From: a virus
Lineage: Duplodnaviria > Caudoviricetes
IMG/VR virus record: IMGVR_UViG_3300012973_000013
Location: 3,295 to 67,294 of that record
DNA length: 64,000 bases
Reading direction: 5' to 3' (one strand)
Shown here: positions 1,141-12,321 of the stretch, piece after piece
Position numbering within the stretch: position 1 is the stretch's first letter
How the letters are laid out: each line of letters begins with the position of its first letter
Notes under the pieces: generated by a model
The model's database searches: none
The model's input: only the letters and a program-made list of their open reading frames with translations
Told to the model about the DNA's origin: nothing
Position numbers and translations under genes: made by a program

Positions 1141-2549
1141 AACGGCCTCCTCTCAAGATCACGGACGACGTTGGAGGCAATGTCGCAGTAGGCTGTGATC
1201 GTCGCCGTCGGCCCCATGCGTTGCTTCAGGATCGAAAGCTCAATCTGGTTGGCCACCATCTCCAGACGGTGTTCCTCCTCCTCGGTGCGCACCTTGCGTT
1301 CGAGGTGGTAGCTCTCGCGGTAGACACCGACGACGACGTCGGCATCCTCCTCGATCGCCCCGGACCAACGCAGCGCCGACAGCGAGGGGCGCTTGTCGTC
1401 GCCGGTCTCGCTCGACCGGTTGAACTGGCAGAGCGCCAGCACGGCCACATCGAGCTCCTTCGCCAGCGGCTTCAGAGCATTCGAGACTTCGGTCGTCTCC
1501 TGCACCTTGTTTCCGGCATAGCGGTTCGACGCCTTGATGAGCCCCATGTGGTCGATGACGACGAGGTCGAGGCGCCTTCCGGTCTGCGCCATCTCGCGGG
1601 CGACGCGCCGGGCGCGGGCGACGATCTGCGAGACGGTGAGGCCCGGCTGTGGCTCGATCAGCAGCGGCAGGTGCTGCAACGACTGCTGCGCCTCAATCAG
1701 CCGCTCAAGGTCGTCGTCGGAGATCGACCCGCGCTGCGCCTCCGAGTACCGGATCGGCGCCGAATAGCTCCACGCGGCGTCCGTGAGGGCACGCAAGGCC
1801 AGTTGGTCGGCCGTCATCTCCTGGCTGACGTAGAGCACGCCGTGGCCCGCCCGGGCGGACGCCAGAGCCGCAGAGAGGGCAACGGCGCTTTTTCCCATGC
1901 TGGGCCGTCCGGCGAGCACGACCATATCGCCGCGGATCATGCCGAGCGTGGCGTTGTCCATGTCGCGGAGGCCCCACGTGCTGCCGACCAGGTGCTGCTT
2001 GGACTGCCGCCGCTTCTCGATGTCGGTCAGAGCATCGTGGGCTGCGTCCCTCACCATCACACGCCGGATGGATCGGCTGACGCGCGACGACACGACGGCG
2101 TCCAACTCGGCGATGGCCTCGGCCGCAATGCCGGCCGGGTTCTCGCTCCACGATGCGGACGTGACGCGGGCAATGGCAGCCTGCGAGGCCGAGACGATGC
2201 GCCGGCGATCCGATGCGTCCCTCACTGACCGGGCGGACGAGACCAGATTGACCGTGGTCGTCGCATTCGCCACGAGCCGCATGACGTACTGCATGGGCGA
2301 GAGGTCGCCGAAGCGGACAGTGCCGACAGAAGCCGCCAACAGGCTCGGCGAAACGCCACGGCCCGCCTTGGTCGCCTCGGCGATTTCCGTGAAGATGACG
2401 CCGTGCGACGGTTCGATGAAATCGCTGGCCTGCAGGTCGTCGCACGCCCCGATTTCATCGGGCCGCGACAGCAGAATGCCGAGCACTTCCTGTTCGATCG
2501 CGATGACTGCCGCGTCGTCAGCGGCGGAGCGACGGTGCACGGCGTTCAT
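1137..2549 (-). CDS. dnaB: DnaB-like replicative helicase
   Basis: Walker A LAGRPSMGKS, VIDHMGL, LCQFNR, LRWSGAIEEDAD, KQRMGP. Confidence 0.95.
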   Translation of the reverse strand: MNAVHRRSAADDAAVIAIEQEVLGILLSRPDEIGACDDLQASDFIEPSHGVIFTEIAEATKAGRGVSPSLLAASVGTVRFGDLSPMQYVMRLVANATTTVNLVSSARSVRDASDRRRIVSASQAAIARVTSASWSENPAGIAAEAIAELDAVVSSRVSRSIRRVMVRDAAHDALTDIEKRRQSKQHLVGSTWGLRDMDNATLGMIRGDMVVLAGRPSMGKSAVALSAALASARAGHGVLYVSQEMTADQLALRALTDAAWSYSAPIRYSEAQRGSISDDDLERLIEAQQSLQHLPLLIEPQPGLTVSQIVARARRVAREMAQTGRRLDLVVIDHMGLIKASNRYAGNKVQETTEVSNALKPLAKELDVAVLALCQFNRSSETGDDKRPSLSALRWSGAIEEDADVVVGVYRESYHLERKVRTEEEEHRLEMVANQIELSILKQRMGPTATITAYCDIASNVVRDLERRPF

Positions 2550-2767
2550 GCCGGCACCTCGCGGACCGCGATCTCATCGGCCACCTGATAGGCTGTTTCG
2601 GCCGCCATGCGGTCGCCCTCGATGCGCGAGAGTTCGTTGGCGGAGAACCAGATCAGGGACCGCAGCATTTCGATCTGCGCAGTTTCGCCGTGGCATTTCC
2701 GCATGCCGAGCGAGCCGTCGCGGACAAGCTGCCGGGCCGTGTCGATGACGTCTTCTTTCGAGGGCAT
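2546..2767 (-). CDS. Hypothetical protein
   Basis: ORF coupled to dnaB by an ATGA overlap; start trimmed to MPSKEDV. Confidence 0.55.
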   Translation of the reverse strand: MPSKEDVIDTARQLVRDGSLGMRKCHGETAQIEMLRSLIWFSANELSRIEGDRMAAETAYQVADEIAVREVPA

Positions 2768-2850
2768 TGCACTCCGCCGCGCTGTTGGGCAGAACATCTG
2801 TCTGGGCTGCTTCGCACCGGTTGGGAACCGGCATCGGCCAACTTTCCCCG

Positions 2851-3513
2851 CTAATGATCCGGGGATGCGTCTGATCTCACCGTGTAAGCGATGCGTCGAT
2901 GATGCTGGCAGTACGATGAGCCAACCTTGGCCTCGCCGCCGCAATAGCCAAAGTCGGCTTCGCGAGGATCGCCGATCGGCCATCGGCATGTGCGCAAGGT
3001 CAGATCCTGCACGTCGAATATTCTGGCGATACCGTGGCGGCGGTCGGTGTAGCCCGGTTCCGGCTTCACGCCGTCGATCGGCTTGCGCTTGAAGGTGAAT
3101 GCGATGTGCGGCGGGCGCTTGCCCGATGGCACGCTCACCGAAGCCGTCTTAATCCCCGCGTAGCCACCGACCGGGGCGCGGGCGAGCTTCAGGCCGGCCC
3201 GGGCGATGTAGCCGGCAACCTGCCCCTTGGTCATGCCGATCGCCGAGGCGATGGCGCGCGTGCTCTCACCAGCCTCGACCATCTCCCGGACCAGCGTGCA
3301 GCGATCCTCCGTCCAGACCGTGTTCGTCGGACCTCCCACCCGCCCACGGGGAGCAGCGCGAGGGTCGCCCTCACGACGACCGGCCTTGACGATTGCCATG
3401 ACGCGGCTGGCGTCGAGCGGATCGCCGAGGCGCTGGGAGATCACTGCCGGCTTGTACCCGCCGGCCCAGAGATTGAGCACGGCATCCGAATAGGGCGCCA
3501 GTCGCACAGTCAC
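2851..3513 (-). CDS. gcrA: GcrA-family transcription regulator
   Basis: WTEDRC...G.S.RAIA..IGMTKGQVAG helix-turn-helix and C-terminal LTLRTCRWPIGDP...FGYCG...YCQHHRRIAY. Confidence 0.85.
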   Translation of the reverse strand: MTVRLAPYSDAVLNLWAGGYKPAVISQRLGDPLDASRVMAIVKAGRREGDPRAAPRGRVGGPTNTVWTEDRCTLVREMVEAGESTRAIASAIGMTKGQVAGYIARAGLKLARAPVGGYAGIKTASVSVPSGKRPPHIAFTFKRKPIDGVKPEPGYTDRRHGIARIFDVQDLTLRTCRWPIGDPREADFGYCGGEAKVGSSYCQHHRRIAYTVRSDASPDH

Positions 3514-3959
3514 TCGCCGTACTCCTGCATCGGGCTCTTGGGGGCGGGCTCGGGTGGGAGGTCGAGGTCAAAGCGGCCCTCGTCGCCCGGCACGGCCGGC
3601 TTGCGGTAGCGGACGGCACCGCCCTTGCCGGCCTGCTCGGCCAGCTTCTCGCCGATCCTCTGTGCCTCCCGCATGGACCACGGCAGGCGGATCGACAGCG
3701 GCTCAGAGGCGCCCTGCTCGGCAATCCAGAGGAAAATTGCCTCGTTCGGAACCGGCACCATCGACAGGATCACCGCCTCGTCGGGAGGCGCGTCGAGCGG
3801 CTGCGGCCGGCCCTGCATCGTGGACGCCTGCCACATCCAGCCGAGCGCGACGCAGAACAGGATCGCGATCGTCAGCGGCCATTTGCGGAGGTAGGCGGCC
3901 AGCAGCCCGGCGCCGTAGGCTGCGATGATGATGGCGTGTGCTGCGAGGGTCGCGGTCAT
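3510..3959 (-). CDS. Membrane-anchored hypothetical protein (last gene of the MotA/ExbB-like module)
   Basis: Two N-terminal hydrophobic segments, then EAIFLWI...EPLSIRLPWS; 4-bp overlaps with both neighbours. Confidence 0.7.
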   Translation of the reverse strand: MTATLAAHAIIIAAYGAGLLAAYLRKWPLTIAILFCVALGWMWQASTMQGRPQPLDAPPDEAVILSMVPVPNEAIFLWIAEQGASEPLSIRLPWSMREAQRIGEKLAEQAGKGGAVRYRKPAVPGDEGRFDLDLPPEPAPKSPMQEYGE

Positions 3960-4822
3960 GCCGACACCTCAACGCTTGGGGCGTACCCTGAAATCTCACG
4001 CCCCTCGAAGCAGCACGGATGCGCGCCCCACCGAGGCGTGTTCGGCGGGCCTCCTTCGAGAAAAAGGACGGCTCCAGAGGGGAGCCGCGCAAAATCCGCG
4101 GAGAAGTGGTTGCGCGACAGGTCAAGCAGACCGTCGCACTCCGGCATGTTCAGCGGAAGCTTCTGCTCACGTATCAGCGCCGACGTCATGTTGCGCACGG
4201 CCGTGAGGTCCGCATCTGTGCGAGCATCATGCGGCAATGCCCGCTGCGGATAGTAGTTGGAGATGCCAATGATCTCATTGTCCCGCACAAATACGCGGTA
4301 CTCGACCGGGTAGCGGTCGACGACATCGAATGTCAGCCACGGCCTTGCCCAGGCTGAAATCCGCGGAAGCGGAAACTCCGCGATCAGGTCGAAAGCGCGG
4401 AAGTCGTCAACGCTGAGGTCCATGAGGCTGGGGTGCCATTCCGGCATCCCCTCGCTCAGCCGATACTTCACATACGCCATCGAGCAGCAGGACCACCGGA
4501 GCATCCAGCCGATCGGCATGCGCCGCTCGACGTCACGGACAGCAGCAAAGAGGGCGGGCACGTCCTCGTGTACGGGACCTTCGTTGTCGATGGCATCCCA
4601 CAAGTCGATCGTTGGCGCGGAGGCAATTTCCAGCGCAGGCACCGCCGGAACACCTGCGGCCTGGCACAACCGCATCCAGCAGCCCAAATCTAAAGGGGTG
4701 AAGCCATTCAGTCGGCCGCCAGCTTCGGTTGTGGCGGAGCGACGAGCGCGACCCGCCAAGACGGCGGCTTCGATGGCTTCGTCACTGAACATGCTGAGAA
4801 TGTCGCTGACGCCCGTCATCAC
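3956..4822 (-). CDS. ATP-grasp-like protein (CDC123/R2K-like)
   Basis: EYRVFVRDNEIIGISNYY, FSADF...G.VLFLEGGP and HPCCF resemble the C-terminal core of R2K/CDC123 ATP-grasp proteins. Confidence 0.55.
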   Translation of the reverse strand: MMTGVSDILSMFSDEAIEAAVLAGRARRSATTEAGGRLNGFTPLDLGCWMRLCQAAGVPAVPALEIASAPTIDLWDAIDNEGPVHEDVPALFAAVRDVERRMPIGWMLRWSCCSMAYVKYRLSEGMPEWHPSLMDLSVDDFRAFDLIAEFPLPRISAWARPWLTFDVVDRYPVEYRVFVRDNEIIGISNYYPQRALPHDARTDADLTAVRNMTSALIREQKLPLNMPECDGLLDLSRNHFSADFARLPSGAVLFLEGGPPNTPRWGAHPCCFEGREISGYAPSVEVSA

Positions 4823-5394
4823 TGCCTCTCGATTTTGGTGGTGATGTCGCCCACGGACCCGGAGACGACGCGGCCGCCCTCGTCCATGCGCCAGCGGGCC
4901 AGCGTCTGCTCGTCGCCGACGCTGCGGATGTTGACGGTGCCCCTGCGGATGGTCCGGGAAAAGCCGTTGGTGCGGATGATGATCGTGAAGGTCACCGGCA
5001 CCGGAAACGTCACGTCGCGCGCCGAGTAGCCGTGCGCATTGACGAGGTATTCACCGGCCGGAGTGCCGCGAGCGACCGCGAGTTCGCAGTTGTCGCTGTC
5101 GCCCGCCTTGTTGCCGAGGTCGTCGCGCAGGAGCGTCCACACGTTGCCGTCCCGGCGTTTGTAGCCGACCGGATCGTCGCCCGGCGCCACCGACCAGATG
5201 TCGATGTCTGCATCGACACCCAGCGGCCAGCAGGCGGAGACCTGGATGAGCCCCGGCGGCGGCTCGTCCTGCGCACGCGTCGGGTCATTGACCAGCGGCA
5301 GGATGATCAGGACGAGGAGCATGTAGAAGATGGCGATGTTTCCGAGTACGTCTCGGAAGAGGACCGCCGTGATGCGGTCACTCTGCATCGTCAT
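4819..5394 (-). CDS. ExbD/TolR-like single-pass membrane protein with a beta-rich soluble domain
   Basis: FRDVLGNIAIFYMLLVLIILP helix preceded by Asp, then DADIDIWSVAP...LLRDDLG...GEYLVNAH. Confidence 0.55.
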   Translation of the reverse strand: MTMQSDRITAVLFRDVLGNIAIFYMLLVLIILPLVNDPTRAQDEPPPGLIQVSACWPLGVDADIDIWSVAPGDDPVGYKRRDGNVWTLLRDDLGNKAGDSDNCELAVARGTPAGEYLVNAHGYSARDVTFPVPVTFTIIIRTNGFSRTIRRGTVNIRSVGDEQTLARWRMDEGGRVVSGSVGDITTKIERQ

Positions 5395-5827
5395 CAATCC
5401 CCGTCACGAGCTTGAATGTCAGGCGATGCACGCCGAGGAACAGGGCGACGATGCAGCCGATGATCGACGTCCCGAGGGCGATCTTCATGCCCTCAACGAT
5501 CAAGGCGACCATGCCCTTCAGTTCAGTGGCGCCGGACACCGTGACGATGCCGCCGAGCGCGATCATGATGCCGATCAGGGTGCCCAACAGTCCCAGCTGC
5601 ACCGCGTAGGACGCGATCGTGTTCACCGTCGCGAGGTAGCGGTTGTAGTCGTATTGCGACCGCCACGCTCCGATCATGTAGACCGAGCCGGCGATCCCCA
5701 GCAGCGCAATCGCCTGCGAGATGCCGGTGCGGTCGTAGAGGATGTAATCGTCAATCCAGCCCTGCCAGTACGCAGCGACCAGAGCGAGAGTGGCGATGGA
5801 CTGAATCGCCCAATACGAATAGGCCAT
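5378..5827 (-). CDS. MotA/TolQ/ExbB proton-channel-like membrane protein
   Basis: TM motifs QLGLLGTLIGIMIAL and GMKIALGTSIIG match the MotA/ExbB signature helices. Confidence 0.7.
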   Translation of the reverse strand: MAYSYWAIQSIATLALVAAYWQGWIDDYILYDRTGISQAIALLGIAGSVYMIGAWRSQYDYNRYLATVNTIASYAVQLGLLGTLIGIMIALGGIVTVSGATELKGMVALIVEGMKIALGTSIIGCIVALFLGVHRLTFKLVTGIDDDAE

Positions 5828-5842
5828 ATAGACCCCCTGTGT

Positions 5843-6295
5843 TCAGACGATGTTGCCGACTTGCTTCCAGACGGCGGCGGCGACCGGCGGCGGCAGGACC
5901 GCCACGGCCGGTGAACACGGCCCCTCGACGAGCACCCACAACTGCCCTGTTGCCCCGTCAGGCCCGCGGACCGGCAGCACGACGATGAGCGAGGCGGGGG
6001 CGATGGGTTGCTCCAGGACCACGCCCAGCGCTGCCCGCATTCTCGCCGCCATCGGACCAGCGACGACCATCCCGGCCTCACCGCTCTCCCGCAGTTGGTG
6101 TTCCACGGCCAGCAGAGCCGCGGACACGATCACCTCGCCCTCTGCGCACCGAGCGATTTCCTCTGCCAGAGGAGCCAGCAATACGTCCGGCTCATTCGTC
6201 CCGAACGGGTTCGGCGCCGGCACTGGCACGTCAGCAGCCCACGCGCCGATGGGCGCCAGGCAGAGGCACGCAATCGCAAGAAGGGCACGGCGCAT
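5843..6295 (-). CDS. Secreted hypothetical protein
   Basis: Signal peptide MRRALLAIACLCLAPIGAWA; RBS-like GGAG upstream. Confidence 0.65.
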   Translation of the reverse strand: MRRALLAIACLCLAPIGAWAADVPVPAPNPFGTNEPDVLLAPLAEEIARCAEGEVIVSAALLAVEHQLRESGEAGMVVAGPMAARMRAALGVVLEQPIAPASLIVVLPVRGPDGATGQLWVLVEGPCSPAVAVLPPPVAAAVWKQVGNIV

Positions 6296-6304
6296 GGCAG
6301 GCTC

Positions 6305-6571
6305 CTACGTGGTGGGGGTGGGGGTGGTGGGCTGGCGCCCGGAGAGCGTGGTCGATCGAGCCAAGGCGCGATCAGCCCGCCGGCGATCGTTGAGAGCCGC
6401 CCACAGTCTGCGGCGCCTCGCCTTGTAAGCAGGGTCGACCCTGCAGCGCAGATGGCTCGAGCTGCAGCCGAGTGCGCGGGCAATGCGCATCCACGACCAG
6501 CCGGCGGCGCGGAGCATCTGGACGTGCTCGGTGAAGGCAAGGGAGGGCGCCGGGAGCGCGTGCGCGTTCAT
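6305..6571 (-). CDS. Small HTH protein
   Basis: LRAAGWSWMRIARALGCS helix-turn-helix; coupled to the methyltransferase stop. Confidence 0.55.
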   Translation of the reverse strand: MNAHALPAPSLAFTEHVQMLRAAGWSWMRIARALGCSSSHLRCRVDPAYKARRRRLWAALNDRRRADRALARSTTLSGRQPTTPTPTT

Positions 6572-7809
6572 TCGGCGGCCTCGCGGTCGGCGAAGAGCGG
6601 GCCGGCGTCAGAGGTCTCACCTCGCGCTTTGATTGTCGCGTACCGACGCTCATCAGGGCCGCCGAGCACGAGCGACATGCGGCGCTCGATGTCGGCAAGG
6701 TACTGGGGCTCGCGCTCGATCAGGACGGCGTCGCAGCCCTCCCAGTAAGCCGCCTCTCCCGTCGTCCCGGTGCCGGCGAACGGGTCGAGGACGCGGCCCC
6801 TTGGCGGCGTCACCAGCCGCACCAGCCAGCGCATCAGGTCGACGGGTTTGACAGTCGGGTGCTTCGAGCCGAGGCGGTCATCCGCGTCCGCCTTGGCCGA
6901 GAAGAAGAACCGGGCAGCGGAGCCGGTGTCGCCTCGCGGATCCGCACGACCCGCGCGCTTTGGCATGTCTCCGTAAACATTGGCGAAGGGCGACGAGGGT
7001 TCGTTGCCCGTTACAACGCCCTGCTGACCGTTGCTCTCAGGAAATGCCGCCAGCACCTCATCGCTGCCGTCGTGGAGGACGTTCGCAGGGAAGCGGCCGA
7101 GCGCTTCTGCCTTCGCGATTGCCTCGCGCGCCCGCGCATCCCGGGCTGCCACAGCGCCGGCGTCGTGCTTCCACGGTCGGTCCCAGCCCCCTTCGCCGCA
7201 AAGCGTCCCCTTGGTCGATGGCTGGTTGATCCGGTCACTCGTCGCAATCCGGCAGCCGTCGATGTTGATCGCCCCCGTGCCCCAACGCAGCACGTTAGCG
7301 GCCACCGACCCTTCCGACAGCGGCCGGCGGGCAAGCGCGATCGGCTCCCACGCCGGCTTCAGCGCAGTGCCCCTGCCCTCGCCGATGTCACGGCTTTTCG
7401 GGAACCCCGTGGCGTAGGTCCACGCCAGCTGGTCGCGGATCTCGAACCCGGCGTCTTCGATCGCGCACGTCATCCGGTGATAGGTGCGCGTGCCGGAGAA
7501 GGCGACGAGGTGGCCACCGGGTTTCAGCACGCGCAGCACCTCGGCCCAGAATTCGGCCGCGAACGCTGTCTCGCCGGTGTCCCATTTCTGGCCCATGAAC
7601 CCGGCCGAGGCGCGGGCATACGCGCCGGTCTTGCCGGCCTTCGTGGGGGCCGCGTTGTCAGAGCCAAAGCGCTTGCTGATCGACACCAGCGCATACGGCG
7701 GGTCGGTCACCACGCTGTCGACGGACGAGTCGGGGAGCGACCGGATCACGTCCCGGCAGTCGCCGGCGTGCAGCACCACCCGGCCGTCGAGGAAGGTGCG
7801 CGCCGTCAC
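6568..7809 (-). CDS. Orphan N6-adenine/N4-cytosine DNA methyltransferase (beta class)
   Basis: DPPY near the N-terminus; HPTVKP and VLDPFAGTGTTG near the C-terminus; no adjacent restriction gene. Confidence 0.92.
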   Translation of the reverse strand: MTARTFLDGRVVLHAGDCRDVIRSLPDSSVDSVVTDPPYALVSISKRFGSDNAAPTKAGKTGAYARASAGFMGQKWDTGETAFAAEFWAEVLRVLKPGGHLVAFSGTRTYHRMTCAIEDAGFEIRDQLAWTYATGFPKSRDIGEGRGTALKPAWEPIALARRPLSEGSVAANVLRWGTGAINIDGCRIATSDRINQPSTKGTLCGEGGWDRPWKHDAGAVAARDARAREAIAKAEALGRFPANVLHDGSDEVLAAFPESNGQQGVVTGNEPSSPFANVYGDMPKRAGRADPRGDTGSAARFFFSAKADADDRLGSKHPTVKPVDLMRWLVRLVTPPRGRVLDPFAGTGTTGEAAYWEGCDAVLIEREPQYLADIERRMSLVLGGPDERRYATIKARGETSDAGPLFADREAAE

Positions 7810-8021
7810 TGCCCGCCCTCCCGCTCGGCCTGCGCCTTGACGAAGTGAGCCGCGTCCCGGAGGACGTAGAGGCGGTCGCGCATGCGGTGCAGTTCAGCCT
7901 CAGACGGGCGCTCGCCAGGCTTCTTGCCCCGGAGCACGTCGTAGTGGCCGCGCCGGTTGACGAAGCTCAGCTCCAGCTCGGACGCCATTTCTTGCAGGGT
8001 CGAGGCGGCGCGGCCGGTCAT
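7806..8021 (-). CDS. Hypothetical protein
   Basis: Start trimmed to MTGRAAS; overlaps both neighbours. Confidence 0.55.
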   Translation of the reverse strand: MTGRAASTLQEMASELELSFVNRRGHYDVLRGKKPGERPSEAELHRMRDRLYVLRDAAHFVKAQAEREGGQ

Positions 8022-8656
8022 TCCGCCGCCTCCGAGTGGCGGAAAAACTCGCCACGGAACTTTTCTGCCGCGGCGAGGTATGCTTTCGCCGCGCCCTCCC
8101 CCCGGTAGGCCGGACAGGCGGGATTGCGACGGTCCAGCCACGGCGGCATTTCCAGGTCGTCGTCCGTGATGCTGGTGGACGGGGCCGGCGCCCGCTGCGC
8201 TGCCTCGGGGGCTACGACCGCAGGCGCCTCGCTGGCAGCCGTTTCGCGGCTCTCCTGCTCGGCTGCCGGGGGCGCCGGGGTATGGATGGGGGTGATGGCG
8301 GGCTCGGCGACCATCTTCCCGGCGTCGGGAGAATGGTCCTCCCTCGCGCGTGCGGGTGCACGTGCACGCGTGGGAGGCTCAGAAGGGGCCGCGACAGGCG
8401 ACCCCGGCAGCATCCCGAGCGCGGCGAGGTACAGGTCCGCCAGCGTCTCGAATTCCGAGCGCTTGTCGGCGTCCTGCGCCCGGACCTTGATGACGTGGCG
8501 GAGCACCTTCACGTCGAAGCCGTTAGCCTTCGCCTCGGCGTAGATGTCGCGCAGATCGTCGGCGAGTTCGTCTCGCTCGGCGTTGACGCGCTCCAGCCGC
8601 TCGACGAAGGACTTCAGCTGACCGGCCGCGATGCCGGCGACGGTTTCTTCGGTCAT
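8018..8656 (-). CDS. GapR/DUF2312 (UPF0335) nucleoid-associated protein with Pro/Ala-rich C-terminal extension
   Basis: QLKSFVERLERV..E.D.L..D..DIYAEAKANGFDVKVLRHVIK...LYLAALGM. Confidence 0.85.
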   Translation of the reverse strand: MTEETVAGIAAGQLKSFVERLERVNAERDELADDLRDIYAEAKANGFDVKVLRHVIKVRAQDADKRSEFETLADLYLAALGMLPGSPVAAPSEPPTRARAPARAREDHSPDAGKMVAEPAITPIHTPAPPAAEQESRETAASEAPAVVAPEAAQRAPAPSTSITDDDLEMPPWLDRRNPACPAYRGEGAAKAYLAAAEKFRGEFFRHSEAAE

Positions 8657-9036
8657 GCTGCCTTGCTCCCGAGAATTTCGGCATCGAGCAGCCCCCACGC
8701 CCGGAGCGCGGCCACGGCCTCGTCGATGCTGCGAATGACTGCGACCGGCGCGCCGAGTGCTTCAGCAGCCTCGCGCCACGCCTTCTGATCAGGCGACAAC
8801 CGGCCCTTGGGGGCCTTCAATTCCATGCAGTAAGCGCGTCCACCGGGGCCGATGAACACGAGGTCAGGCACACCCTTGCGAACGCCGAGCCCGACGAACC
8901 GGGCGGCAGTGCGGCGGTCCCGGGGGCCACCGTTCGGCACGTGAAACCAGAGCGCGCGAGGACGTGTGCGGGTCAGCAAGCCAACGATGGCTCGCTGCAG
9001 ATCGTCCTCAGGGGTCTGGCGGCGCCCCATCGTCAC
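8653..9036 (-). CDS. VRR-NUC domain nuclease
   Basis: FHVPNGG...GVRKGVPDL...MELKAPKGRLSPDQKAW. Confidence 0.88.
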   Translation of the reverse strand: MTMGRRQTPEDDLQRAIVGLLTRTRPRALWFHVPNGGPRDRRTAARFVGLGVRKGVPDLVFIGPGGRAYCMELKAPKGRLSPDQKAWREAAEALGAPVAVIRSIDEAVAALRAWGLLDAEILGSKAA

Positions 9037-11130: not shown

Positions 11131-11293
11131 CACGCACCCCCAGTTCCAGAGCGATCAGGTGCGCCATAGCCCCCTCGAGGGCGGCGCCAGCGCGCGGCCG
11201 GGATCGACCCAGCCGGAGCGTCGCGAAGACGATCGCCAGCCCAGAGGGGGCTGCGAGCGCGGCGACGACGGAAAGCGTTTGAGCGACGGTCAT
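11123..11293 (-). CDS. Small membrane peptide
   Basis: Manual translation MTVAQTLSVVAALAAPSGLAIVFATL...; ATGA overlap with the cro stop. Confidence 0.5.
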   Translation of the reverse strand: MTVAQTLSVVAALAAPSGLAIVFATLRLGRSRPRAGAALEGAMAHLIALELGVRDV

Positions 11294-11559
11294 GCTGCCT
11301 CCGAGGGGCGCACGGTCGCGGCGCCCTTCTGCGGGCGCTGCTTCCGGGGCGGGCGAAGCGTTGACAGCAGCTCGGCAGTGACGCCCCTCGCCAACGGCGC
11401 CTCAGCGACCGCTGACGCAGCCACGACCCGCGGCCAGTACTCAGGGGGGATCGAATTGCGGCGGCCCATCAGCGAAGCGTGCATGGGGGTGACGCCCACG
11501 ACGCGGGCGAACTTCGTCGGCCCGCCGAATGCCTTGATGATGTCGTTGTGCGTTCGCAT
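11290..11559 (-). CDS. cro: Cro-like repressor
   Basis: IIKAFGGPTKFARVVGVT...W motif; divergent from cI. Confidence 0.8.
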   Translation of the reverse strand: MRTHNDIIKAFGGPTKFARVVGVTPMHASLMGRRNSIPPEYWPRVVAASAVAEAPLARGVTAELLSTLRPPRKQRPQKGAATVRPSEAA

Positions 11560-11566
11560 GACCATG

Positions 11567-11594
11567 ATTGTACATATCGCACAGCCATCGTCAA
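11567..11594 (-). promoter_or_regulatory. Lytic promoter driving cro, with operator 11569-11583
   Basis: TTGACG-N16-TACAAT on the minus strand; palindrome TGTAC-N5-GCACA overlaps the spacer and -10. Confidence 0.75.
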
Positions 11595-11614
11595 TGCCAA
11601 ATGCACTGGCGGCC

Positions 11615-11629
11615 TGCGCATAGTGCGCG
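11615..11629. promoter_or_regulatory. Degenerate operator just upstream of the cI start
   Basis: TGCGC-ATAGT-GCGCG, a near match to TGTRC-N5-GYACA. Confidence 0.45.
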
Positions 11630-11631
11630 AC

Positions 11632-12321
11632 ATGGGAAAAGACCGAATCTTGATCGAGGAAGCCGCCCGCCGGCTCCGCGAAGCGCGCCAGAAGGCGAAG
11701 ATCGACAGCGCCGCCGAGGCAGCGCGGCGCTTCGGCTGGAACCCGAACACTTACGCCAGTCATGAGAACGGTAACCGCGGCTTCAGCCGCAGCGCCGCTC
11801 GTCAGTACGCTTCTGCGTATAAGGTGCCTTTGGCGTGGCTATTGAACGGATCCTCCGAACCTGCAACAGTTGAAGTCGTCAGGCAGGCTCCTGTCGTGGG
11901 GGAAGTCGCCGCTGGAGTGTGGCGGGAGGATGACGTGTGGGATGTCGGTAAATATGCCGACGTTCCTGTCGTAAATGGGCGTTTTGGGCATCTTCCGCAG
12001 TATGCCTTTCGTGTCTCCGGGGGGAGCATGGATCTACTGCGGATATTCGACGGCGACTTTGTCGTATGTGTCGAATATTGGGAAGCGCGAACTGCGCATG
12101 GTGATGGGGACGTGGTTGTAGTATGCAGGCGTCGCGGAGCGCTAGTTGAGCGGACCGTCAAGCAGATCGCGGCCGATGGCTCGTCAACGGAACTTTGGCC
12201 ACGCTCGTCGGATCCGCGCTTCCAATCGCCAATCGTAGTGAAGCCGGACGGCACCGATGCAGACGGCGCCCTGGTGGAAATTACGCACCTGGTCATCAGC
12301 GCGGTCAGAAACTTCACATAG
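11632..12321 (+). CDS. cI: CI-like repressor (XRE HTH + S24 autopeptidase)
   Basis: N-terminal AEAARRFGWNPNTYASHENG; VVGEVAAG cleavage-site motif; FRVSGGSM (Ser) and RTVK (Lys) catalytic dyad. Confidence 0.9.
   Translation: MGKDRILIEEAARRLREARQKAKIDSAAEAARRFGWNPNTYASHENGNRGFSRSAARQYASAYKVPLAWLLNGSSEPATVEVVRQAPVVGEVAAGVWREDDVWDVGKYADVPVVNGRFGHLPQYAFRVSGGSMDLLRIFDGDFVVCVEYWEARTAHGDGDVVVVCRRRGALVERTVKQIAADGSSTELWPRSSDPRFQSPIVVKPDGTDADGALVEITHLVISAVRNFT

Follow-up and report, generated by a model that had tools for sequence, protein, structure and literature searches.

MotAB, ExbBD, TolQR and ZorAB are ion-driven membrane motors with a 5:2 composition. To our knowledge this class, which includes flagellar stators, the Ton and Tol systems, gliding motors and Zorya, is small and heavily studied, and all its described members are cellular. 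Here we describe a gene cassette from a virus that encodes a protein of the same superfamily. The window, i.e. the whole stretch of 64,000 nucleotides that was analysed, comprises bases 3295-67294 of the 67,294-bp linear virus record IMGVR_UViG_3300012973_000013 (about 80% complete according to CheckV; 66% GC). Between positions 3510 and 5827 it carries four genes on the minus strand, here called A, B, C and D, with a gene for an exported protein upstream of A. A encodes a member of the MotA/TolQ/ExbB family, and A, B and D recur together in phages and in bacterial chromosomes. We propose, with a probability of roughly 55%, that the cassette encodes a self-contained transducer of 5:2 type that belongs to the MotA/ExbB class, is driven by ions and has its output in the periplasm.

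Full-text searching of the literature found no paper on the cassette or on phage-encoded MotA, ExbB or TolQ. The work available as PMC12505986 covers cellular homologues only, without phage-encoded ones and without the A-B-D trio; in its terms the cassette would be a 'generic ion transporter' without any condensed cytoplasmic domain. MotA, ExbB and TolQ are not mentioned in PMC4431377 or PMC7824862.

The five genes, in order of transcription, are as follows:

5843..6295, minus strand: exported protein of 150 amino acids (aa) with a signal peptide ending AWA/AD; phage-specific upstream companion of the cassette
5378..5827, minus strand: A, 149 aa, minimal MotA/TolQ/ExbB-family channel subunit (Pfam PF01618, 34.2 bits)
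4819..5388, minus strand: B, 189 aa, partner with a single transmembrane (TM) helix bearing an Asp; start ATG 5388, open reading frame (ORF) extendable to TTG 5397
3956..4822, minus strand: C, 288 aa, most likely an R2K/CDC123-clade ATP-grasp protein; between B and D
3510..3959, minus strand: D, 149 aa, TM helical hairpin, small beta domain with one helix, Pro-rich tail

A first reading made from the sequence alone (below: the sequence-only reading) had described four translationally coupled genes with a signal-peptide gene upstream, and all five ORFs are indeed present. The overlap of A and B amounts to 11 nt with ATG 5388 as the start of B and to 20 nt with TTG 5397; homologues of B are 188-189 aa long, which fits the ATG. 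Overlaps of 4 nt (ATGA or GTGA) are found at the B/C and C/D junctions as well as between D and the following GcrA-like gene. The stop codon of the signal-peptide gene lies 15 nt upstream of A, and purine-rich Shine-Dalgarno-like runs precede every start.

Channel subunit A and its partners B and D

A matches the Pfam family MotA_ExbB (PF01618) with 34.2 bits, above the cut-off of 22.9, and hhalign aligned it to E. coli TolQ with an E value of 2e-4 over 62 columns at 31% identity, placing the motif GLLGT of A on GLFGT of TolQ. The MotA/TolQ/ExbB identity first noticed in the sequence is thereby borne out, and on these profile matches A is a member of the superfamily. Against the same Pfam model the A proteins of cultured phages reached 23.2-27.3 bits, the copy of phage 16-3 only 12.4. 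When a profile of the A family was compared with the PDB, nearly everything it matched was a pentameric subunit of a 5:2 motor, with chains of ZorA (E 4e-7 and 2e-5), MotA (E 0.014 and 0.022) and TolQ (E 0.46); the sole stray match was a rhomboid protease at E 0.12. The direct hhalign comparison with E. coli MotA covered only 18 columns (E 0.18). Membership in one of the named subfamilies is not indicated: the NCBIfam ZorA, TolQ and ExbB models scored about 20 bits on A (17-23 bits for ZorA), far below their cut-offs of 100-700, and the ZorA models of PADLOC gave weak matches.

Instead of the three TM helices counted initially, hydropathy and the family alignment show four hydrophobic helices in A. 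Together with the charge distribution they suggest an N-in orientation and a MotA-like plan. Only about 15-17 residues occupy the position of the cytoplasmic domain. The C-terminus, encoded by 5378-5392, is acidic and ends DDDAE; in the clade of the window it reads DDDAE, DDDGE or ADGE. In the alignment to TolQ, T83 of A corresponds to T145 and S121 to T178, which we take to be the two threonines lining the proton path and facing D23 of TolR. Both positions are conserved among distinct relatives of A: position 83, within the motif GLxG(T/N), is Thr in 110 of 147 and Asn in 36, and position 121 is Thr in 138 of 148 and Ser in 8.

B consists of a short cytoplasmic N-terminus, one TM helix with an Asp in the motif FRDV, a Pro-rich linker and a beta-sandwich. 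Hydropathy shows a single strongly hydrophobic helix. Of 155 distinct relatives, 153 retain the Asp of FRDV; it had been placed just before the helix, whereas it sits inside the N-terminal (cytoplasmic) end of it, as in TolR and ExbD. In hhalign comparisons the Asp fell on D23 of TolR, weakly (E 0.024) and over the 23-residue helix only, and on D32 of MotB, again weakly (E 0.19) and over 14 helix columns only. Beyond the helix B does not belong to the ExbD/TolR, MotB or ZorB families. A Pfam scan of 21 members of the B family gave no match, ExbD, OmpA, TerD and DUF2135 included; B has no NCBIfam, PHROG or PDB sequence match, and Foldseek against the PDB returned nothing at E<=1e-3. The designation 'ExbD-like' thus holds for the TM helix and its Asp and fails for the soluble domain, which has no Pfam match to ExbD, OmpA or any other family.

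That this domain is rich in beta structure was anticipated correctly: in the predicted model of B (predicted local distance difference test, pLDDT, 75; strands 80-94) it forms a C-terminal beta-sandwich. Its best structural matches were to TerD, with Z 7.7 over 121 residues and Z 6.7 over 125, scores that can also arise between unrelated beta-sandwiches. Among named Atlas clusters those of DUF2135/YfaP came nearest to B (0.84), which we regard as a lead only. Six residues of B are invariant (W54, D61, D63, D89, D90 and E102 in the numbering of the 189-aa protein) and N100 is found in 155 of 158 sequences. The acidic members of this set (D61, D63, D89, D90, E102), together with N100, render a metal site plausible, and the sandwich probably binds Ca2+.

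For D the two TM helices reported earlier are present in the model (pLDDT 91.2), which comprises helices 2-23 and 27-48, strands within 53-93 and a further helix 96-112. Nearly all relatives (148 of about 150) retain P87 and P93. In none of the 174 other cassette loci that we collected (see below) is D longer than about 200 aa, and in the clade of the window it ends QEYGE, encoded here by 3510-3524. A fusion of D to a lysozyme was not confirmed: a search for longer proteins of 346-2000 aa had no hit, and in tblastn of two D proteins against cultured phages all hits were unfused hypothetical proteins. D has no Pfam, NCBIfam or PHROG family and, on these searches, is in no known family. Foldseek gave weak OB-like matches only (E >= 0.03) and nothing at E<=1e-3 against the PDB. 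A separate VIA-align list was filled by the helical hairpin of D and barely probed its beta domain. A match of D to pAgo in PADLOC (E 0.019) is marginal and was held to be meaningless. According to the positive-inside rule, the soluble parts of both B and D would be periplasmic.

A conserved trio, its companions and its genomic setting

Loci with the cassette were sampled by pattern scans, which matched 270 viral contigs and 219 species genomes; 80 of each were taken. Profiles of A, B and D, searched against every ORF of the 174 loci, detected B in 173, D in 164 and A in 162, and the genes nearly always share a strand and follow the order A-B-D. The genes proposed as a module are therefore co-conserved in other genomes as far as A, B and D are concerned; this does not extend to C, which is absent from them. 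Judged from gene content, the conserved unit is the three genes A-B-D, usually joined in phages by an upstream exported protein. No gene other than A, B and D is conserved in the surroundings of the trio in the 80 species genomes. In Meinhardsimonia xiamenensis, for instance, the trio lies among the genes for acetyl-CoA synthetase (acs), NAD kinase, glyA and uvrC.

Word-based searches returned 21 clusters for B and 6 for A, so that the proteins appeared to be rare. When a B profile was searched exhaustively, 2162 cluster representatives came up at E<=1e-3, 508 of them at E<=1e-30, nearly all of about 190 aa. The trio also occurs in cultured phages, namely the temperate Rhizobium phage 16-3 (p038, p040, p042), RHph_X2_25, RHph_N3_19 and RHph_I1_18 (171 kb), where its genes are annotated as hypothetical throughout. 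None of the five proteins belongs to a PHROG family. In tblastn against 50,697 phage records A, C and D of the window had no match and B alone was found, and a 20-kb piece of the window likewise had no megablast match among phage records. Three loci (L006-L008, 1-1106) represent another phage type, with an Acb1-family protein (PF23474) encoded a few kb upstream and baseplate/tail-fibre genes downstream; this context indicates that the cassette is not tied to one genome module.

Phage and chromosomal copies differ in the size of A. The loop between helices 2 and 3, measured by motif plus hydropathy, has a median length of 53 residues in species genomes and of 7.5 residues in viral contigs, and of about 17 in the window. 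A short loop of the phage type was seen in 10 of 77 scored copies from species genomes (L095-L174), which may be prophage copies. In a FastTree phylogeny of 158 distinct B sequences the labels viral and genomic require 4 changes compared with 53 when shuffled. Sampling differed between the two sets and related copies carry the same label, so the tree shows only that phage copies of B mostly form lineages of their own.

The gene upstream of A is kept only in the window's own clade: L001 and L005 carry it at the same position with 49-55% identity, and a match was also found in L017. Its product has no Pfam or PHROG match. The association of A with an exported protein is broader than this family. 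By the calls of a crude script predictor, a signal-peptide-like ORF lies upstream of A in 50 of 82 viral loci, compared with 6% of the other ORFs there, and in 9 of 48 genomes. In 39 viral loci the gene directly upstream of A on the same strand encodes a Trypsin_2 peptidase, an arrangement seen in none of the 80 species genomes. Where it occurs among L015-L094, the Trypsin_2 gene lies about 0.9-2.2 kb upstream of B, and phage 16-3 has it as p036 (L011 2277-3176). Most of the Trypsin_2 loci share a downstream protein of about 430 aa, and many may represent one phage lineage.

Gene C was called ATP-grasp-like in the sequence-only reading, and this agrees with what we found. Against Pfam, C scored 25.1 on R2K_3 (cut-off 26.3), 20.0 on R2K_2 (26.2) and 12.5 on D123 (24), all below cut-off; its neighbours in the Atlas are D123/R2K clusters at 0.95-0.96, several of them from phages, with a TM-score of 0.56 to an R2K_3 cluster. 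C contains no hydrophobic segment and has no solved relative detectable by sequence. It is most likely an R2K/CDC123-type ATP-grasp ligase; enzymes of the R2K clade have been predicted to be protein-modifying peptide ligases (PMC4431377).

Among the loci examined, this phage is the only one with C inside the membrane-protein cassette. The GC content at third codon positions (GC3) is 0.74 in C, compared with 0.85 in A, 0.89 in B and 0.90 in D. Since none of the 174 other loci contains a homologue of C and its GC3 is lower, we consider it an insertion; judged by these comparisons, it is cargo in the B|D junction and lies outside the conserved cassette. In the closest relatives (L001-L003) B is followed directly by D, and in L005 a methylase fills the gap. 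Other phages have a DNA methylase, an HNH endonuclease or ORFs of 60-90 aa at the A|B and B|D junctions (L005 2147-2848; L012 4550-5092; L011 4555-4743; L006 6570-6827). As the ATP-grasp insertion shows, cargo genes can be accommodated at the cassette junctions.

On the minus strand, the stretch that runs from about 11.6 kb to the start of the window reads as the Cro-side early operon of a temperate phage. The features that define this setting are:

11479-12321, plus strand: CI-like repressor gene (helix-turn-helix and Peptidase_S24), divergent from the Cro-like gene
11567..11594, minus strand: sigma-70-like promoter, TTGACG-16-TACAAT, 10/12 matches, upstream of the Cro-like gene
11290-11763, minus strand: weakly Cro-like gene
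8018-8698, minus strand: GapR-like DNA-binding protein, homologue of a Caulobacter-type chromosome/cell-cycle factor
6568-7809, minus strand: CcrM-type N6/N4 DNA methylase, homologue of a Caulobacter-type chromosome/cell-cycle factor
2851-3513, minus strand: GcrA-like regulator, homologue of a Caulobacter-type cell-cycle factor

Below the Cro-like gene the order is VRR-NUC, the GapR-like gene, the CcrM-type methylase and the five genes described here; the GcrA-like regulator, DnaB, HNH and DUF1376 follow downstream. The promoter at 11567..11594 is probably the start of the early operon that bears the cassette. Between promoter and cassette no convincing terminator was found, with 3 terminator-like sites where 4.3 are expected by chance. 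The placement of the genes in a lytic early operon is accordingly supported: they lie on the Cro side, with the CcrM-like methylase before them and the GcrA-like and DnaB genes after them. Inside gene C on the minus strand (4068-4088) there is a hairpin of 8 pairs, 6 of which are GC, with a T-rich tail; it resembles a terminator but may mean nothing. In L001-L005 a pair of GcrA and methylase genes likewise lies beside the cassette. Because of the GcrA, CcrM and GapR genes and the GC content of 66%, the host would be an alphaproteobacterium. Downstream of the GcrA-like gene, an ORF of 147 aa without a family match (2546-2989, minus strand) shares 139 nt with that gene when called from its first ATG, and its translation probably begins at a more internal codon.

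Proposed function and alternatives

In the mechanism that we favor, A, a four-helix subunit without a cytoplasmic domain, most likely forms the pentameric ring of a 5:2-type complex. B would supply the central helices, whose Asp would face the Thr/Asn and Thr/Ser positions in the last two helices of A and take up a proton (or Na+), and the flow of ions would move B relative to A. Since A has no cytoplasmic face, work would be delivered in the periplasm or in the membrane. The outputs are likely to be the beta-sandwich of B and, in a third-subunit role like that of TolA or TonB, D. The client in the phage is likely the exported protein encoded upstream of A, or else the cell envelope. In this phage the cassette would be produced early, together with the replication genes. 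That the machine is self-contained is argued by its own set of partners with their functional residues kept and by the housekeeping sites of the chromosomal copies.

Several observations weigh against this reading. With E values of 0.024 and 0.19, the B helix aligns to TolR and MotB at weak significance only, and the key Thr of A is replaced by Asn in a quarter of the family. The 5:2 assembly and the Asp-Thr geometry are predicted from homology. A lacks a cytoplasmic domain, and B a known peptidoglycan-binding or ExbD fold, through which force might be anchored and delivered. B resembles TerD only moderately (Z 7.7), and its invariant acidic residues lie in loops with a pLDDT below 50. Many of the viral loci are from related phages, so that the counts of upstream exported genes overstate their independence, and the signal peptides were called with a crude script.

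A more specific version of the proposal, which we put forward tentatively and as clearly less probable than the transducer itself, concerns the purpose of the machine. A core of A5B2 type driven by the proton motive force might, together with D, power or position an exported phage protein in the periplasm, i.e. a trypsin-like peptidase in many phages and the small exported protein here. The phage would then use membrane energy of the host to remodel or breach the envelope or to exclude its rivals.

Alternatively, the complex could be a regulated ion channel or leak instead of a motor: a gated proton or cation path that lowers or tunes the membrane potential, e.g. for lysis timing, shut-off of host transport or blocking the DNA entry of other phages, with the periplasmic domains of B and D as gates or sensors, e.g. 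of Ca2+. A keeps only the channel-forming helices and lacks the cytoplasmic output domain of other family members, the invariant acidic cluster in the TerD-like fold of B would suit a Ca2+ sensor, and in at least one locus (L010, with LysC) the cassette stands beside lysis genes. We nevertheless consider a leak unlikely, because chromosomal copies at housekeeping sites are hard to square with a depolarising device and because the third subunit D, which has a Pro-rich tail and would have a periplasmic domain too, is more suggestive of an output element; in this phage, moreover, the genes are early and far from the endolysin region at about 36.8-38.5 kb.

More doubtful still is a decoy, in which A and B insert into or titrate the host's TolQRA, ExbBD-TonB, MotAB or Zorya and so poison these complexes, block superinfection by the Tol/Ton route or disarm Zorya. 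Early expression, as predicted from the operon position, and the shortness of phage copies relative to bacterial ones would be in keeping with such a role, as would the resemblance of two core helices of A to ZorA, MotA and TolQ. This resemblance is distant, however: identity to a host-type TolQ is 31% over 62 columns, and A stays at about 20 bits on the ZorA, TolQ and ExbB models of NCBIfam that demand 100-700. The ZorA tail, ZorB, ZorC and ZorD are all missing. A decoy would also have no need of the matched partners B and D, nor of the catalytic Asp and Thr that are kept in more than 150 sequences, and the same trio stands alone in many bacterial chromosomes. The suggestions of the sequence-only reading that the module is a decoy, counters Zorya or tunes the proton motive force thus found no support: the cassette has its own full set of partners with functional residues kept, and it occupies housekeeping sites on chromosomes.

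Acidic tails such as DDDAE or QEYGE are substrates of some ATP-grasp ligases. A four-gene system, with C as an integral regulator of the motor that modifies a cassette protein, e.g. by adding amino acids to the acidic tail of A in the manner of RimK or tubulin ligases, is very improbable in spite of the 4-nt overlaps on both sides of C, the DDDAE end of A and the predicted peptide-ligase activity of the R2K clade (PMC4431377), given that the 174 loci lack C, that the relatives L001-L005 keep the same acidic tails without it, that its GC3 falls below that of its neighbours, and that HNH, methylase and small ORFs mark A|B and B|D as insertion spots in other phages.

If the more specific version, with an exported phage protein as client, is true, the cassette would represent the smallest stator known and, within the 5:2 motor class, the first example encoded by a virus. 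With about 130-160 aa and almost no cytoplasmic part, phage A would be the most reduced subunit of the class and a natural minimal system for what the coupling of ion flow to work strictly needs. The families of B and D are unnamed in Pfam, NCBIfam and the PHROGs, even though B comprises more than 2000 cluster representatives. Hundreds of phage contigs and the housekeeping sites in alphaproteobacteria point to an unrecognised envelope function that phages would have copied and shrunk. Since cultured and genetically tractable carriers exist in Rhizobium phage 16-3 and the RHph phages, the question is directly testable.

Relation to described systems

Among solved structures, ZorA (PDB 8vvn, 8qyd) is the best sequence match to the core helices of A (E 4e-7). 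The cassette differs from Zorya in that it scores far under the ZorA cut-offs, lacks the long ZorA tail, the peptidoglycan-binding domain of ZorB as well as ZorC and ZorD, and occurs in phages and at housekeeping sites of chromosomes and not in defence islands. By these marks it is not a Zorya system, and PADLOC gave no convincing defence match for B, C, D or the exported protein.

To Ca2+-binding sandwiches B is related by its best structural matches, which are to TerD (Z 7.7 and 6.7), by its Atlas neighbours of DUF2135 (YfaP-type), a lead only, and by an invariant Asp/Asn/Glu cluster of its own. In contrast to these, B has no Pfam match and its domain is joined to a stator-type TM helix; we know of no described TerD protein attached to such a helix. 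Gene C resembles the R2K-clade ATP-grasp enzymes (CDC123/D123, R2K.2, R2K.3) in matching all three Pfam models below threshold, and it differs from them in that none of its Pfam matches reaches the cut-off and in its place inside a membrane cassette.

With MotAB and PomAB (PDB 8gqy, 6ysl, 6ykm) the cassette has in common that A would possess four helices in N-in orientation with the ion path in the last two, and that the family profile of A matches MotA chains. B, like MotB and PomB, has a helix with a conserved Asp close to its cytoplasmic end. The torque-generating cytoplasmic domain, the plug/linker, the OmpA-like domain and the flagellar context are absent from the cassette, and a third subunit is present.

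From TolQ-TolR-TolA and ExbB-ExbD-TonB the cassette is set apart by being carried by phages and by the form of each subunit. A has four helices within 149 aa and almost no cytoplasmic loop, whereas TolQ and ExbB combine three TM helices with a helical cytoplasmic domain; ExbD and TolR have a periplasmic fold of their own, B a TerD-like beta-sandwich without a Pfam match to ExbD; and D is a two-helix hairpin with a small beta domain, for which no homology to TolA or TonB was found. The overall plan is shared with both systems: three adjacent genes for inner-membrane proteins, of which the first belongs to the Pfam family of TolQ and aligns Thr83 and Ser121 with T145 and T178, the second resembles TolR in a single N-in helix with an Asp at the D23 position and the motif (F/L)xDV(L), and the third, like TolA and TonB, is a membrane-anchored subunit with a Pro-rich periplasmic segment; the output of the cassette would presumably be periplasmic as well.

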